DNA of 32,000 bases from Promethearchaeia archaeon (GCA_046497275.1 JAWOFX010000092.1:5682-37681); one strand, 5' to 3'; shown: positions 23,821 through 29,471, counted from the first letter of the stretch. The notes: generated by a model from the letters alone, not told the origin. Translations and numbers: made by a program.

Positions 23821-24609
23821 TTAACGAAAATAAGAGTCTGTGCCTTTGTCTTTTTGATATTCTTTCATAAAATGATCAGCTTGCTCTTTAAATTTGTCAA
23901 GCATGTCTTCCATCTCCTCTATTTTTTTATCGAGCTCGGAATAATCCATTTCAATCGCAAAATAATCCTTTAACACAGTGACCAAAGATTTTGAAGCTTT
24001 TGGGTCGAGATTAATCATTCTTAGTGGCAAAGTTTCTGCTAATAAGCAAATTCCGGGAGCAAAATTATTTTTACCTGCCCATGCAGGCAATATACCATTA
24101 GCTCCAGCAATAACTCCACTCTCCATCACTTCCGTGTTTTCTAATTCTAAAAAACTTTCTGTAATCTTTTTATCTGTCCCAGAAACATAGACTGTAGGCT
24201 CTTCTTTATCCATGGACTTATCTGAAACCATAGCACCTGCGCTTAAATACATTCTAATATTTCCTTTTGTTAATTTGTCCATCTCCTCACAAAATTGTTT
24301 GGAAAATTCAAATACACCTTCTGGGGATTGGGGTTGATAATCACCTGTTAAAACAAAAATATCTCCGTTTTCACGACCTTTATAAAACAATTTTGCTGTT
24401 GGAATATCGAGAGCTCCCTCTTCTACTGAACTTTTGGGAGGAAAGTCAAAATACTGGATATCAAATACTAATTCCGCATTAATAGCATCTTTAATCGAAC
24501 TAATTGCTAATTTTCCCACTAATGCAATACCCGGCCAACCGATTAATACCGTGGGATTGTTTAATTTCTCTGGATCAAGTTCAAGTTTCTTCTCGAAATT
24601 TATATACAT
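23821..24609 (-). CDS. Proteasome assembly chaperone (PAC2) family protein
   Basis: LIGWPGIALVGKLA, GVIAGANGIL, GICLLAET and DPKAS..LV.VL, with a C-terminal coiled coil. Confidence 0.88.
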   Translation of the reverse strand: MYINFEKKLELDPEKLNNPTVLIGWPGIALVGKLAISSIKDAINAELVFDIQYFDFPPKSSVEEGALDIPTAKLFYKGRENGDIFVLTGDYQPQSPEGVFEFSKQFCEEMDKLTKGNIRMYLSAGAMVSDKSMDKEEPTVYVSGTDKKITESFLELENTEVMESGVIAGANGILPAWAGKNNFAPGICLLAETLPLRMINLDPKASKSLVTVLKDYFAIEMDYSELDKKIEEMEDMLDKFKEQADHFMKEYQKDKGTDSYFR

Positions 24610-24862
24610 ACATATTTTAATTTATCTATCTAATTTAACTTTATTTCTCTTAAACATAGTTAATGAATAAAAATATCGCAAAATCATCAATTCATTTTAA
24701 AAGAGGATTATAACTAAAATAAATGAAATTGTAATATAAATGGAGCCATTTATTCAAATCTCAAGGAAATATTAAAATCAAAACTTTGATGGATAATATT
24801 TAATATTTAATAATCTTTCTAATACATGAAATTTTATAGTTTGAAGGCGATTTCAAATTTCA

Positions 24863-25579
24863 ATGAATACTTTAGAATTTTTAAACGGATTTTTGAGTCT
24901 TATTTATGTTGGAATATCGTTATTGATTGGCTTAACTCTAATTTATTCATATTTTAAACGAAATGAAAAAATACTTATTTATATAGGTTTTAGTTTAATT
25001 GGAATTGTCACTCCATGGTATCCGAGTAGTATTTCATTTATCGTGGCGCTTTTTAATTATGGAAAAGGAATTCCAGAAGTATTATATTATATAATAGGAA
25101 ACGCATTCGGTCCTCTCTTCCTTTTTGTATGGTTGGTGGTTTTCACCAACTATTATTATCAAAAGTATAAGAAATATATATTAGGCGCCTCGATAATTTA
25201 TGGAATCGTATTTGAAATCATTTTTTTTACTTTATTAATATTGGATCCGTCAAATATAGCATATTATGAACCCCCCGTAAATGTCGAATTTACGGGTATT
25301 TATTTGATACTAGCGGTATCAGTTATAATGATTTTTTTTATCACTGGAATACTATTTTCTTATGGTGCAATTACTTGCCATAGACAAGAGGATAAGATAA
25401 AGGGCTTTTTTGTTTTTACCGCCTTTATATCTTACACCTTGGGAGCATTTTTAGATGCTGCAGTTCAACAAGATTATTTAAATTTAATAATCACCAGAAC
25501 GATATTAATTTCGGGAGCAATTGAATGGTATTTTGGATTTATTATGCCCAATTGGCTTAAAAAAAGAATCCTAAATTAA
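24863..25579 (+). CDS. Stand-alone 7-TM membrane protein, paralog 1
   Basis: Seven hydrophobic segments with short loops and no cytosolic enzyme domain; gap-free alignment to the next gene (136/237 identical by hand count). Confidence 0.85.
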   Translation: MNTLEFLNGFLSLIYVGISLLIGLTLIYSYFKRNEKILIYIGFSLIGIVTPWYPSSISFIVALFNYGKGIPEVLYYIIGNAFGPLFLFVWLVVFTNYYYQKYKKYILGASIIYGIVFEIIFFTLLILDPSNIAYYEPPVNVEFTGIYLILAVSVIMIFFITGILFSYGAITCHRQEDKIKGFFVFTAFISYTLGAFLDAAVQQDYLNLIITRTILISGAIEWYFGFIMPNWLKKRILN

Positions 25580-25772
25580 TCTTCCAAGAATTATAATTAT
25601 CATAGATTTAGGTATAAATAAGAGGCGTTTTATTCTTATGTCTCCCTAATAACATTATAACTATTTTTCACTCAATAACGATTATTTCACAGAAGAAGAA
25701 TAAAGTAAATTTAATAATAAGAAGTTTTATTATTTAGGTAATTCAGCATTTAATTCTGAGTGGTTTCAAAAT

Positions 25773-26486
25773 ATGGATGCTTTCACTATTTTAAATGGTA
25801 CTTTTAGTATAATATATGTATTTATTTCAATCTTAGTTGGAGGTACAATGATCGCAGCTTATTTTAAAAATAAGGAAAAGCTGCTACTTTTGGTTGGTTT
25901 GACATGGATTGGTTTAGTAATGCCATGGTATCCAAGTAGTATATCCTTTATCGTTGCTCTTTTCAATAATGGAGTAGGAATCTCAGAGATCGCATACTAC
26001 TTAATTGGGAATGTTGCAGCTCCGGTTTTTATTTTTATTTGGTTAATGGCGTTTACAGAATTCTTTTTTGTAGAAAAACGTAAGGTTATATTAGGAGGAG
26101 GATTAGTTTACGTAATACTATTTGAGGCTATATTTTTAATATTATTAATTCTGAATCCTAGTGGTATTGCCGACTTTGAACCCCCGATTAATGTAGATTA
26201 TAAAGGTCTGTATTTAATTCTGGCATTATCCGTCATTCTCATAGTATCTACTACTGGATTATACTTTTCATATCGGTCGATTAAAACAGAGAAGAGAAAA
26301 ACCAAAATAAAGGGATATTTCCTTTTGGCTGCGTTCATTTCATATACGATTGGAGCGATTCTGGATGCTGCTATCGCAAGAGATTATTTGCTCTTGATTA
26401 TAGCAAGGATAATATTGATTACAGGCGCAATAGAATGGTATTTTGGGTTTATAATGCCTAAATTTTTACAAAAAAGATTGGAATAG
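25773..26486 (+). CDS. Stand-alone 7-TM membrane protein, paralog 2
   Basis: Same topology; shares PWYPSSISFIVALFN, AFISYTxGAxLDAA and GAIEWYFGFIMP with paralog 1. Confidence 0.85.
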   Translation: MDAFTILNGTFSIIYVFISILVGGTMIAAYFKNKEKLLLLVGLTWIGLVMPWYPSSISFIVALFNNGVGISEIAYYLIGNVAAPVFIFIWLMAFTEFFFVEKRKVILGGGLVYVILFEAIFLILLILNPSGIADFEPPINVDYKGLYLILALSVILIVSTTGLYFSYRSIKTEKRKTKIKGYFLLAAFISYTIGAILDAAIARDYLLLIIARIILITGAIEWYFGFIMPKFLQKRLE

Positions 26487-26573
26487 ATGAATTCTGTAGA
26501 AAGAATTTTTGATTTTTAACAAAAAATTAGAAGATAATCAAGATAATACCTATGTATCACCATGGTATTACAC

Positions 26574-26582
26574 TTTTTTTTT
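26574..26582 (+). terminator. Possible oligo-T archaeal terminator after the second 7TM gene
   Basis: T9 run 88 bp past the stop codon, followed by TTATAATT at 26591-26598. T runs are common at this AT content. Confidence 0.3.
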
Positions 26583-26634
26583 ATCTTTGCTTATAATTTA
26601 TTCTTTAACTACTCATTTGATAATTAATTGAATT

Positions 26635-27165
26635 ATGTTAAGATCAACTCTTATTGATGAAACAATTAAGGTTTCTATTATAGGTTTCCCTGCGGTGGGT
26701 AAAACAACAATGACCAAAATGTTAGCCCAGAAGGAAACAACGAAGAAATATATTCCAACTGCTGGTTTTGATTTAAAGACTGTAGAATTCGGTCCTTACC
26801 GTTTGAAAATCTGGGACTTCGGAGGTCAAAAAAACTATATGAATAAATATTTAGAAGATTTCATTGTAGGATCAGATTTGATTTTCATTGTAACTGATTC
26901 TACCCCAAAAAATGTTCTGAATTCGAGGGAACTTATAGACCATGCTCGAGAAATTATGGAAGATGACTGTCCCATTATCGCAATAGCCAATAAACAAGAT
27001 TTATGTGAAACTGATGGGAGAATGAATCATAAAATGGTAGAGGATCTATTACATACAAAAACGGTTGGTTTGAGTGCTGTAGATCATCAAGAAAGATTGC
27101 GTTTAATAAATATTATAGAAAATGAATTAGAAAAAGTATTAAAAAGGAGGGATTTAAAAGAATGA
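26635..27165 (+). CDS. Small GTPase, Arf-related (Ras superfamily)
   Basis: G1 GFPAVGKTT, G2 PTAGF, G3 WDFGGQ, G4 ANKQD, G5 SAV. No Gly2 myristoylation site and no CAAX box. Confidence 0.95.
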   Translation: MLRSTLIDETIKVSIIGFPAVGKTTMTKMLAQKETTKKYIPTAGFDLKTVEFGPYRLKIWDFGGQKNYMNKYLEDFIVGSDLIFIVTDSTPKNVLNSRELIDHAREIMEDDCPIIAIANKQDLCETDGRMNHKMVEDLLHTKTVGLSAVDHQERLRLINIIENELEKVLKRRDLKE

Positions 27166-27728
27166 ATTTTGATAAAAATGAATTATTTGGTGCGGCCCTC
27201 ATAGGGTTTGATATGATTGATGGCCCGTTTCTCAAATGGAAAAAGGAATTTAAAGAGAAAACGGATATTGTCCAACTGGATGATTTCGCTATGAATTTTT
27301 ATTTATCATTTCGAGGGGGAAACTCGGGTAAAAAACCAAGAGCCATACTTTATGATAATTTTTACATAGTAGCTTTTCCGAAAGATCTTGAATTATGCTG
27401 TCTATTTATGAAACCAAAAAATATTGAAGCTAATATAAATAATTTGAATAAAATTGCATCTAGAATCATGTTAGAGATGGAAATTGACGAAGATAATGAA
27501 TGTGTTGAAGATGAAATTAGTGATGATTCTGATGAAAATACAGTAGAAGAGATTAAACGTCTCATTCTTAATATGTTAAATGATACGAAAATGAGTACCC
27601 CAGAGATGAGAAAATACTTTAAGCTTACCAATGCTGAGATTTGGAAAATTATGTCAGATCTTGAGAGTGCCAAAAAGGTAATGAGGGCAGGTAAGAAAGG
27701 GAGAGCTCAACTATGGACGACTCCATAA
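27162..27728 (+). CDS. Longin/uDENN-like domain + acidic linker + winged-HTH fusion
   Basis: N-terminal AALIGFDMIDGPFLKW resembles the F/W-D-x-x-x-GP hairpin that starts C9orf72/NPRL2-type longin domains, then a D/E-rich linker, then a wHTH pattern ending GRAQLW. ATGA overlap with the GTPase; AGGAGG at 27145-27150. Confidence 0.7.
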   Translation: MNFDKNELFGAALIGFDMIDGPFLKWKKEFKEKTDIVQLDDFAMNFYLSFRGGNSGKKPRAILYDNFYIVAFPKDLELCCLFMKPKNIEANINNLNKIASRIMLEMEIDEDNECVEDEISDDSDENTVEEIKRLILNMLNDTKMSTPEMRKYFKLTNAEIWKIMSDLESAKKVMRAGKKGRAQLWTTP

Positions 27729-27768
27729 TTCTCTCAAAATATTAAATTTTAACATAATTTTTATTTTT

Positions 27769-28592
27769 TCACACCTCTTTTAAGATTCGATCCTCCCAAT
27801 GTTTTTCTTTTAAAAATATGTTGGAAAAAACCATATAACAAATATCGGGTAGAGCTTTCTGATTGTATTTTAAAGTTATAAACCTAAGAATATGATTGAT
27901 TAAATAGATTGCTAGAAGTTCAATCTCATAAACCCCAATGTTTTTCAAATTTTCACCTGAGTAAGAAACATCCAGTTTATTCTGATTTTCATCGTATGTT
28001 AGTTCAATAAATATATTAGGAAATATTTCCTTGTTTATTTTCCATTCTCTGTCTTTAATCAACACTTTAGCCTCAAAAATTTTTTCTAATCTTATCTTAT
28101 CTTATCTTCTGGGTTTAAGAATGTAAGTGCGAGTCTTCTTTTTCTTAAGGTTTTTTGCATTAATTGGGTTTTTTCGTTATAAGAGGTGCTTAATGGAGTC
28201 TCATTTCTTAGTCTTCTCTCAATATAATTAATAATTATTTCGTTATATGAAAAAAGTTCTTTACCTGATATCAAATAAACCCGATCTCCAGAACAAAGAA
28301 ATTTTAATTCCCCTGCTGTATCTCCAAATTCACCTCCATAATAAAAATATGATATATGGATATTAACCTCCGGAAAAATTTCTAAAGTAAGGGTCCACTC
28401 TTCATCGAATCCGATATTTTCTATCATTGCTCCGAGGTCTTTTTTACTAATTTCTTCTATTACATCTATTTGAATATCTTTGAATAAAGGTGCTTTAGCC
28501 TTACTCATATCTATTAATTCTCGTTCGTGAGGTCCTCTTATACCAGTAGCATCAATTTGTCCGATAGTGAGAAATCTTCGTCTTTGAGTCAT
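27769..28592 (-). pseudogene. Frameshifted paralog of the 28659..29471 gene (split into ORFs 28092..28592 and 27769..28065)
   Basis: The two ORFs match the N- and C-halves of the neighbour. Removing one ATAAG unit restores a 272-aa frame that is colinear across the junction. Confidence 0.85.
28090..28108. repeat. Pentanucleotide tandem repeat (TCTTA)3 TCTT at the frameshift site
   Basis: Directly visible as tcttatcttatcttatctt; the premature TAA (28092-28094, minus strand) lies inside it. Confidence 0.95.
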
Positions 28593-28658
28593 TTTATCAT
28601 TATTTATGTTATAAATTAAGATTCAAGCAAAAATAAATTATTAAGAAAAAATAGGGTT

Positions 28659-29471
28659 TTATATTCTTCTATGTTTCCAATTTTTTTCCTTGGTCATCAA
28701 ACGTGAAAACATAATATAACAAATATCTGGAAGATCTTTCTCTGGGTGGTTTATCGTTATAAATCTAAGAATATGATTGATCAAGAAAATTGCGATTAAT
28801 TCAATATGATAACTTCCAATTTTTTCCAAATTATCACCTGAATAAGAAACATCTAAGTCCTTCTGATTTTCATCATATATTAGTTCAATAAATATTCCCG
28901 GAAATATTTCTTTTTTAAATTTCCATTCAGATGGGTTTTTCCATACATTCGCACCAATAAAATCTTGCAGATTTTCCTTATCCTCTTCTTTTAGCAAATT
29001 AAAAGGTTCTTTTCTCTGCTCTAAGACCTTTTTCATTAATTCTGTTTTTTCTTTATAATTTTTCTCAAATGGTTTCACTCCTTTAATTTGCCTTTCTATG
29101 AAATCCATAACTACATCTATATATGTAGCAATATCTTCCCCAGGAACCCAATATACTCTTTCACCAGAGAATAGGAATTTGAATTCAGCTTCAATATCTC
29201 CACCAAATTCATCTCCAATATATGTATAGACCATGTGAATATTTACTTCAGGAAACATCTCTTTCGTAATTGTCCAGTCCTCACTAAACCCAATATTTAC
29301 GAGTTCTCCTCCAATATCTTCTTTAAGAATCTTTAGAAGACTCTCTCTTTCAAGATCTATAAAATTATGATATTTTGCATTACTTATATCTTCTAATTCC
29401 TTTTCATGTGGACCTCTAACACCAGTAGCATCAATTTGACCTACGGTAAAAAATTTTCTTCTATCTGCCAT
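28659..29471 (-). CDS. Hypothetical protein with two internal DUF3786-like repeats
   Basis: Two copies of W.I/F.KE.FP.V/I.I.L/M.Y...SG...E...I.R.I. The first copy (FPEVNIHMVY..GDEF...EFKFLFSG....PGEDIA) resembles DUF3786. Confidence 0.7.
   Translation of the reverse strand: MADRRKFFTVGQIDATGVRGPHEKELEDISNAKYHNFIDLERESLLKILKEDIGGELVNIGFSEDWTITKEMFPEVNIHMVYTYIGDEFGGDIEAEFKFLFSGERVYWVPGEDIATYIDVVMDFIERQIKGVKPFEKNYKEKTELMKKVLEQRKEPFNLLKEEDKENLQDFIGANVWKNPSEWKFKKEIFPGIFIELIYDENQKDLDVSYSGDNLEKIGSYHIELIAIFLINHILRFITINHPEKDLPDICYIMFSRLMTKEKNWKHRRI

Follow-up and report, generated by a model that had tools for sequence, protein, structure and literature searches.

We analysed a stretch of 32,000 nucleotides from a Promethearchaeia archaeon (GCA_046497275.1 JAWOFX010000092.1:5682-37681; hereafter the window), which takes up all but the first part of a 37.7-kb contig and runs to its end, in a Lokiarchaeial metagenome-assembled genome of 3.85 Mb in 188 contigs. 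Four co-oriented open reading frames (ORFs) on the plus strand were confirmed at 24863-27728. They code for two stand-alone seven-transmembrane (7TM) proteins, here termed TM1 and TM2, a small GTPase of the Arf-like type, and a protein that combines a longin domain with a winged helix-turn-helix (wHTH) domain, which we call LWH. An original prediction for this locus proposed that the four genes might constitute a minimal pathway leading from a membrane sensor through the GTPase to a DNA-binding output. Our analysis suggests a different division of the locus: it is probably best explained as a two-gene operon for a GTPase-gated transcription factor, likely to be autoregulated, that lies beside a separate and lineage-specific pair of 7TM genes. 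The half of the proposed pathway that links the GTPase to LWH is favoured by the strict adjacency of the two genes in 44 of 44 genomes, by a structural model of their complex with a score of 0.80, by the wHTH matches of LWH orthologs and by a set of repeats upstream of the pair. The half that casts the 7TM proteins as the input received no support, as a 7TM gene stands next to the pair in only 9 of the 44 genomes, and a GTPase domain lies near only one of 30 sampled 7TM loci.

The GTPase and LWH as a conserved pair

The GTPase (26635-27165, +; 176 residues) is encoded by the first gene of the pair. It passes the Pfam Arf model (PF00025) with 66.5 bits against a cut-off of 22.3 (2.7e-18), and the Roc and Ras models too, while a profile built from its orthologs finds nothing but Arf/Arl proteins and Asgard ArfRs among its best 60 PDB matches (3e-23 to 7e-19). 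In agreement with the original prediction the GTPase is intact, with the G1 motif GxPxVGKT (GFPAVGKT), the switch-I Thr42, the G3 motif WDFGGQ that includes Q65, and the G4 motif NKQD. Across 19-20 orthologs the motifs GxPxxGKT, T42, WDxGGQ with Q65, TDSxPxNVL and ANKQD are invariant, and PTxGF is present too; the TDSTPxNVL motif is specific to this family. The spacing between Thr42 and Asp61 equals what we take to be the spacing between Thr48 and Asp67 of Arf1. No amphipathic helix could be recognised at the N-terminus, where approximately 11 poorly conserved residues precede the first strand (some ortholog starts are uncertain), and for this reason we name the protein Arf-like rather than a canonical Arf. 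The closest stand-alone paralog of this GTPase in the same genome is a 157-residue protein with a CDSTEKNV motif (contig C83:21780-22351).

LWH (27162-27728, +; 188 residues) is joined to the GTPase gene by an ATGA overlap between the stop codon of the latter and its own start codon. It consists of a longin domain (residues 8-113, nucleotides 27183-27500), an acidic linker, and a C-terminal wHTH (residues 124-188, nucleotides 27531-27725). The translationally coupled longin-like/wHTH protein of the original prediction is thus confirmed by the overlap, by the structural model and by the fold matches of both domains. The model, with a predicted local distance difference test score (pLDDT) of 79, shows an N-terminal domain of the form β-β-α-β-β-β-α, followed by the acidic linker, which is modelled with low confidence, and by a winged helix. 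The secondary structure elements assigned by DSSP to the N-terminal domain (E8-17, E21-29, H39-51, E61-63, E68-74, E77-83 and H89-113) follow the longin topology, with no N-terminal helix. No Pfam longin match is recovered by sequence for LWH. By fold, this domain matches the TRAPP subunits Trs23/Bet5 (Z 9.8; 105 residues, root-mean-square deviation (rmsd) 2.6), Mon1-Ccz1 (Z 9.8) and MglB (Z 9.1-9.2), and further LAMTOR, CPLANE, the ζ and δ subunits of COPI, AP σ and GATOR1, the chains of the last appearing in the Foldseek list only. A Gly-Pro dipeptide (Gly21-Pro22), located at the start of the second strand, is invariant in 20 of 20 LWH orthologs.

The C-terminal domain of LWH matches by fold ArsR/PH1932 (Z 10.8), Z-α (Z 10.5) and NolR (Z 10.3), in each case over 60-63 residues with rmsd values of 1.6-2.5, and its profile recovers an Lrs14-like protein from the PDB (1.6e-4). 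The C-terminal domains of LWH orthologs match the families HTH_DeoR (1.2e-8), HTH_11 (9.8e-7) and HTH_5 (1.9e-5), as well as ArsR, GntR and MarR. Conserved basic residues (K162, R175, K178 and R181) are found in the recognition helix and wing. Binding of Z-DNA was considered for LWH, as Z-α ranks high among the fold matches, and was set aside, since the positions of the key Asn and Tyr of ADAR1 Z-α appear to be occupied by Trp and Ser. LWH is a single-copy gene in its own genome and is present in 56 of the 61 genomes of the class; the family comprises about 500 sequence clusters, all lacking a telling name and a Pfam domain.

The GTPase gene lies directly 5' of the LWH gene in all of the 44 genomes, which belong to seven families of Lokiarchaeia and represent 30 of 30 loci fetched with LWH together with 14 genomes from six other families. 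The two genes mostly overlap or are separated by a few bases, with distances reaching up to a few tens. Related genomes are not independent, and the counts given here and below are to be read as conservation and not as formal statistics. To this can be added a structural prediction: a complex of two LWH chains with one GTPase, GTP and Mg was modelled with a score of 0.80, against 0.02 for the best of three controls. Among solved complexes 58 of 80 attain the mark applied to such scores, and among mismatched pairs 2 of 110, a calibration from which the present case differs in having its own alignments and riding ligands; the score may also partly reflect likeness to longin/roadblock-GTPase complexes that have already been solved. 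The separate runs agree on at least 70% of the contacts, and the partner has a pLDDT of at least 82.

In this model one LWH copy uses residues 16-23, 44, 47-48, 51-55 and 76 to contact residues 18-20, 36-47 and 65-68 of the GTPase, with its GP loop (residues 20-22) touching residues 65-67 in switch II, which include the catalytic Gln65, and with residues 44-55 lying against switch I. The other copy contributes residues 126-142, which meet GTPase residues 18-20, 39 and 88-96, such that the first helix of its wHTH packs against the P-loop and the TDSTPxNVL motif. The model supports binding between the GTPase and LWH, and we consider it very likely that the two proteins constitute a physical and functional unit.

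An operator-like element upstream of the pair

The 148-bp gap that separates TM2 from the GTPase gene contains a run of nine T residues (26574-26582, +) and a TATA-like TTATAA (26591-26596, +). Both features had been noted in the original prediction, where the gap was counted against a connection between the 7TM genes and the GTPase. They are indeed present, but the gap appears to be more than a terminator, as it also holds a conserved operator-like element (26544-26571, +) 5' of the GTPase-LWH operon. This element is made up of three direct half-sites of the form TAWYAC with an 11-bp period, TAATAC-N5-TATCAC-N5-TATTAC. The entire 3.85-Mb genome contains the TAWYAC triple only once, where base composition predicts 0.08 occurrences. 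A pair of the more relaxed form TAWYAY-N5-TAWYAY is found within a positional window of 38 nucleotides in 31 of the 44 genomes, four of which come from distant families, compared with a background of 0.023 per 200 nucleotides; the element is kept whatever gene stands upstream of it. When the regions upstream of the GTPase gene are aligned across five genera, an invariant island of ATATCAC, 4-5 bases and TATTAC stands out in spacers that are otherwise unalignable. In most orthologous loci of the family to which the window itself belongs (family f1), a T-run directly follows the repeats on their 3' side, and variant 11-bp repeats could be discerned by eye in the remaining families. The C83 paralog of the GTPase is likewise preceded, at about 85 bp, by TATWAT-type repeats with 11-bp spacing and then a T-run. 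This may point to a regulon shared with the operon of the window; a genome-wide search with two half-sites gave hits that were too few and too degenerate to define one.

Given that the element is conserved in position, irrespective of the gene upstream, and is followed by the T-run, the gap is best read as the operator and core promoter of an independent GTPase-LWH transcription unit. The T9 run and TTATAA are presumed to form its core promoter, and the former may also terminate transcription from TM2. We infer that LWH is the obvious candidate for binding the repeats, because the C-terminal domains of its orthologs match DNA-binding wHTH families and because their basic residues are conserved. 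A scan for sigma-70 promoters and intrinsic terminators, using bacterial models that are not applicable to archaea, gave results at chance level, and the RNA of the gap folds only modestly better than shuffled sequences (z -2.2). No known RNA was found by an Rfam scan of 24400-28100.

The 7TM genes and the slot they occupy

TM1 (24863-25579, +; 238 residues) and TM2 (25773-26486, +; 237 residues) are paralogs with 58% identity across 236 residues (E 3e-93). Each contains seven hydrophobic segments and leaves no room for a further domain, so that their description as two stand-alone 7TM paralogs in the original prediction stands. Loops rich in K/R after the first, third, fifth and seventh segments suggest an N-out/C-in topology. 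The model of TM2, built on 31 family members (pLDDT 94, predicted template-modelling score 0.88), comprises seven transmembrane helices, a β-hairpin at residues 133-143 in the loop between the fourth and fifth helices, and a short C-terminal helix. Neither TM1 nor TM2 has a usable match in Pfam or NCBIfam, and a Pfam search with the 31 family members yielded no match at E <= 1 for any of them, the HisKA_7TM family (PF16927) included. Their homologs carry only Asgard labels (Promethearchaeota, Lokiarchaeota and Hodarchaeota).

By fold, TM2 resembles HisKA_7TM-bearing kinases and HD/GGDEF proteins of the ESM Atlas (TM-score 0.65-0.71, rmsd 3.7-4.4 over about 220 residues). In the ESM Atlas clusters that it matches, 89-93% of the members carry PF16927, and the names of AFDB clusters agree with this. 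As a seven-helix bundle of similar shape it resembles the HisKA_7TM modules that bacteria and archaea have fused to histidine kinase, HD-GYP, GGDEF or GerE outputs; the proteins of the window differ from these in lacking both a sequence match to PF16927 and a fused output domain. The PDB matches of TM2 are weak ones to G-protein-coupled receptors (GPCRs) only, with Foldseek E-values of at least 3e-3 and VIA Z-scores, to class C, adhesion and Ste2 receptors, that reach at most 11.9 (rmsd 4.4-4.9) and so fall below the caution level of Z 13 that applies to helical bundles. The N-out/C-in topology suggested by the charges would be a further point of likeness to GPCRs; unlike them, the 7TM family showed no linkage to G-proteins. 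A fair description of the family would be that of stand-alone, sensor-like 7TM proteins whose likeness to HisKA_7TM is a resemblance only. Clusters of 7TM and GPCR-like proteins have been reported from Asgard archaea (10.64898/2026.10.28.762692).

The number of 7TM copies per genome varies widely, with 14 in the genome of the window and 22, 38, 4, 2 and 1 in five others (G006, G028, G030, G044 and G050). Tandem pairs are frequent, and a few copies have internal stop codons, all of which indicates that the family is one that expands and contracts rapidly. A maximum-likelihood tree of 51 members places the GTPase-adjacent copies of the window's genus (g1) and of two further genera (g11 and g13), together with TM1 and TM2, in one group (support 94/84), within which TM1 and TM2 represent a duplication inside g1.

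The gene order in family f1 is a PAC2 gene, a variable slot, the GTPase, LWH, and then a convergent gene for a 270-residue protein. A conserved synteny of 7TM, GTPase and longin-wHTH genes, which the original prediction had named as a point to check, was not recovered by the neighbourhood analysis: a 7TM gene occupies the slot upstream of the GTPase in 9 of the 44 genomes, in four genera of a single family, and unrelated genes are found there elsewhere. By genus the slot 7TM is seen in 4 of 7 genomes of g1 (in one case only as a fragment), in 3 of 3 of g11, and in one each of g7 and g13; three of the loci scored as negative have less than 700 bp of upstream sequence. In the 14 genomes of the six other families no 7TM homolog was found within 6 kb of the GTPase-LWH pair. 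Where the 7TM gene is missing, the slot may hold a co-directional gene for a DUF2070 membrane protein, a divergent gene for a protein with six transmembrane segments (EI24/CysZ-like in one genus and lacking a Pfam match in another), or a nucleotidyltransferase gene. Around the 7TM genes of five other genomes, a GTPase domain was found within 1.5 kb in one of the 30 loci sampled, as a weak hit, which is about the chance level.

Because the GTPase-adjacent 7TMs form one clade while the GTPase-LWH pair stays intact, these distributions point to a single entry of the 7TM gene into the slot between the PAC2 gene and the operon in one Lokiarchaeia family, followed by duplication in the genus of the window and by repeated loss elsewhere. 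On the best reading of these patterns, the 7TM genes are transcribed separately, and the GTPase-LWH module does not require them; that they are no dedicated part of it seems quite likely to us. This cautions against the use of 7TM-GTPase adjacency in these genomes to deduce GPCR-like signalling.

Some further occupants and relatives of these loci may be recorded here. In three other genera the DUF2070 protein (630-640 residues) lies directly 5' of the GTPase and is co-directional with it (L046 7437-9368, L047 3908-5803 and L048 7489-9408), and it represents a second, unrelated multi-pass membrane protein in the same position. The left border of the slot in family f1 is kept by the PAC2 gene, which in the window (23821-24609, -) is divergent from TM1 and codes for a protein related to proteasome assembly chaperones (Pfam PF09754, 2.3e-27). 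Elsewhere in the genome of the window (contig C118:52000-63000, locus L051), a 7TM paralog is situated 121 bp from a convergent gene for a 217-residue Arf/Rag-like GTPase. It is preceded on its own strand by the gene for a 366-residue protein that lacks a Pfam match (N-terminus IIYWNKSTGPEQIIQYPP, which also has a GP), and further by genes for an EamA transporter, a VTT/DedA protein and a Ras-like GTPase. The 366-residue protein was considered as a second longin-wHTH protein; a comparison with the LWH profile by hhalign gave no significant similarity (E 0.43), and no such relationship is claimed.

A putative GTPase-gated switch, its alternatives and its relatives

A mechanism can be proposed in which LWH, probably as a dimer, would clamp the nucleotide face of the GTPase, and the nucleotide state of the latter would gate the activity of the winged helix. 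LWH might in turn act on GTP hydrolysis in the manner of the longin GTPase-activating proteins (GAPs) that carry a GP motif, functioning as a GAP, an effector, or both. Its most likely DNA target would be the TAWYAC array 5' of the operon's own promoter, through which the operon might be autoregulated as a switch built of a G-protein and a transcription factor. We advance this gated and autoregulated mechanism tentatively, as one somewhat less secure than the general reading of the locus from which it is drawn.

Several observations weigh against this reading. The LWH of the window itself matches no Pfam HTH family (E <= 1), so that the wHTH assignment is based on the fold and on the orthologs, and its sole NCBIfam match is to SdpR with an E-value of 0.002, far below the model cut-off. 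The first wHTH helix contacts the GTPase in the modelled complex, and the winged helix could accordingly be a protein-binding module, while the repeats might be bound by another factor. Both candidate Arg fingers within the modelled GTPase interface vary: of 20 orthologs, 15 have Arg at position 51, whereas Lys takes its place in 2 and Asn/Gln in 3, and at position 133 Arg, again present in 15, gives way to Asp/Glu in the other 5. The GP motif is the sole feature that suggests a specific kinship with the GAP longins; neither FLCN nor SMCR8 appears in the fold matches listed for the N-terminal domain, which is no evidence against a relationship either. Moreover, the operon, its promoter, the binding to DNA and the GAP activity are all putative. 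As regards the 7TM genes, members of the GTPase-adjacent clade stand in the same place and orientation in four genera. Furthermore, the window's own genome contains 55 Ras/Arf-type GTPase genes, and 2 of 13 7TM loci are no more than 300 bp away from a GTPase gene, where 0.32 such cases would be expected (P about 0.04); at distances of up to 5 kb there are 4, with 1.7 expected (P about 0.08). This proximity is marginal and is not reproduced in relatives. Taken together, the closeness of these two loci and the kept position and orientation of the clade make a lineage-specific link between 7TM and GTPase possible, and we see a very slight chance that, where lineages retain the 7TM clade beside the operon, as this genome does, a GPCR-shaped stand-alone 7TM protein signals to the Arf-like GTPase and through it to a longin-wHTH factor at the TAWYAC repeats.

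A more general form of the sensor pathway has the 7TM proteins act on the Arf-like GTPase in the way that GPCRs act on G-α, that is, like guanine nucleotide exchange factors, with the GTPase controlling the longin-wHTH output, at least where the 7TM gene is kept adjacent. The co-orientation of all four genes, the resemblance of the fold to the sensor modules of histidine kinases and cyclases (and weakly to GPCRs), the positive-inside pattern that suggests an N-out/C-in topology, the grouping of the always co-directional GTPase-adjacent 7TMs of g1, g11 and g13 in one clade, and the C118 paralog at 121 bp from an Arf/Rag-like GTPase are all in keeping with it. We nevertheless find it improbable. 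The pair has stayed whole in 35 genomes where no 7TM gene adjoins it, including G050, in which a single, weak member of the family occurs genome-wide; the slot is otherwise held by unrelated genes, and linkage of the 7TM family to GTPases in the sampled loci is about as frequent as chance. The operon is preceded by its own conserved element, with the T9 run following TM2, and the predicted cytosolic loops of the 7TM proteins measure only 6-8 residues. At C118 the GTPase gene is convergent with the 7TM paralog and hence not co-transcribed with it.

The remaining alternatives concern the pair itself and its upstream repeats. The GTPase and LWH might form a cytoplasmic or membrane switch for polarity or trafficking, of the MglA-MglB, Rag-Ragulator or TRAPP-Rab type, in which the wHTH would mediate dimerisation or protein-protein contacts, like those of ESCRT-II or cullins, rather than bind DNA, and the repeats would bind some other regulator. 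Longin/roadblock platforms do normally regulate trafficking and polarity GTPases (PMC3747258, PMC10933270), the best matches of the N-terminal domain (TRAPP, Mon1-Ccz1, MglB, LAMTOR and CPLANE) are of this kind, and the first wHTH helix touches the GTPase in the model. Against this stand the similarity of the ortholog C-terminal domains to DNA-binding HTH families (with HTH_DeoR at 1.2e-8), the conserved basic residues K162, R175, K178 and R181, which are not named in the modelled interface, the conserved direct repeats before an operon that encodes a wHTH protein, and a GTPase with no obvious membrane-binding amphipathic helix at its N-terminus; we hence regard such a switch as unlikely. It is also conceivable that, outside the GTPase-LWH operon, the neighbourhood is a gene order that was simply inherited and has no functional meaning, and that the repeats are an unusual core-promoter architecture and no operator. 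The order of PAC2, slot, GTPase, LWH and convergent 270-residue gene is kept in family f1, which implies strong inertia of synteny, and the repeats do abut a T-rich, TATA-like region. Generic promoter elements would recur throughout the genome, however, and the array is unique in it; its 11-bp period is helical, its position is conserved across families in which the spacers cannot be aligned, and a related array precedes the closest paralogous GTPase. This makes the explanation highly improbable in our estimation.

The reading as a GTPase-gated transcription factor can be set against several known systems. Small GTPases paired with roadblock or longin regulators are already familiar from MglA-MglB, the conservons, Rag-Ragulator, FLCN and GATOR1. 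What appears to be new here is a GP-motif longin fused to a wHTH of the DNA-binding type, its strict, class-wide operon pairing with an Arf-like GTPase, and the conserved operator-like element. The GP motif has been described in the GAP longins FLCN, SMCR8, C9orf72 and NPRL2 and is absent from non-GAP longins such as adaptins, TRAPP subunits and DENND proteins; it also occurs in Asgard longins, for which the partner GTPase was left open (2025 study, PMC12290439). Unlike these Asgard longins, LWH has its partner encoded in the same operon. As in the GAP complexes FLCN-FNIP, C9orf72-SMCR8 and GATOR1 NPRL2/3, the Gly-Pro of LWH stands at the start of the second strand and is predicted to lie at the catalytic pocket of an Arf/Rag-type GTPase. 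In contrast to them, LWH has a DNA-binding-type wHTH in place of the DENN, TINI or NPRL-type C-terminal domain, its Arg finger is not clearly conserved, and it is probably a homodimer and not a heterodimer. Asgards had already been noted to possess NPRL2-like longins that are fused to signalling domains of prokaryotic type (Liu et al., 10.1101/2020.10.19.343400).

MglA-MglB and the actinobacterial conservons (CvnA-D; PMC4316618, PMC13343842, PMC13621833) likewise place a prokaryotic Ras-superfamily GTPase beside a roadblock/longin regulator, and the conservons, whose operons combine a sensor histidine kinase in the membrane with an MglB-type roadblock protein, a DUF742 protein and an MglA-type GTPase, are the closest known analogue of the sensor-GTPase-regulator idea. 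The GTPase studied here is Arf-like (WDxGGQ) and not of the MglA type, and LWH has a longin topology fused to a wHTH. Again unlike the conservons, the locus was found to contain no histidine kinase and no DUF742 protein, and its membrane protein is not conserved with the pair. The GTPase shares the PTxGF and WDxGGQ motifs with the Asgard ArfRs (PDB 8OUK, 8OUL and 8OUN; 10.1101/2024.02.28.582541, PMC11914678), which its profile matches at 1e-19 to 1e-23. It differs from them in lacking a recognisable amphipathic helix, in having the TDSTPxNVL motif, and in being the operon partner of a longin-wHTH protein. In MK-D1, GTPases were reported to be generally not in operons with roadblock/longin genes, and matching an Asgard GTPase to its regulator from gene order was described as difficult (Tran et al., PMC10933270); the class-wide GTPase-LWH operon stands against the former generalisation.

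Small GTPases and longin/roadblock proteins each number in the dozens in Asgard genomes, and the locus offers a concrete matched pair among them: it is single-copy, class-wide and translationally coupled, has a confident complex model, and comes with a candidate DNA target. If the wHTH should prove to bind the repeats in a nucleotide-dependent manner, a small GTPase would here directly control a transcription factor; we know of no such direct control for Arf-type GTPases. Were the 7TM proteins to be involved after all, 7TM, GTPase and LWH would make up a complete pathway from receptor to G-protein to DNA in an Asgard archaeon.

Downstream of LWH, the region 27769-29471 (-) contains three ORFs that belong to one unnamed family with no Pfam match. 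The full 270-residue copy (28659-29471, -) is the gene that lies convergent to LWH, a position conserved in family f1 only. The other two ORFs, 28092-28592 (166 residues) and 27769-28065 (98 residues), match the N- and C-terminal halves of the 270-residue protein, respectively, and represent a split second copy. Near the contig end, 30908-31966 (-) codes for a receptor-like protein of 352 residues. This protein, too, was considered as a second longin-wHTH protein and is not claimed as such, as the LWH profile detects no significant similarity in it (hhalign E 0.58); its architecture consists of a β-rich N-terminal part, one transmembrane segment and a cytosolic tail.

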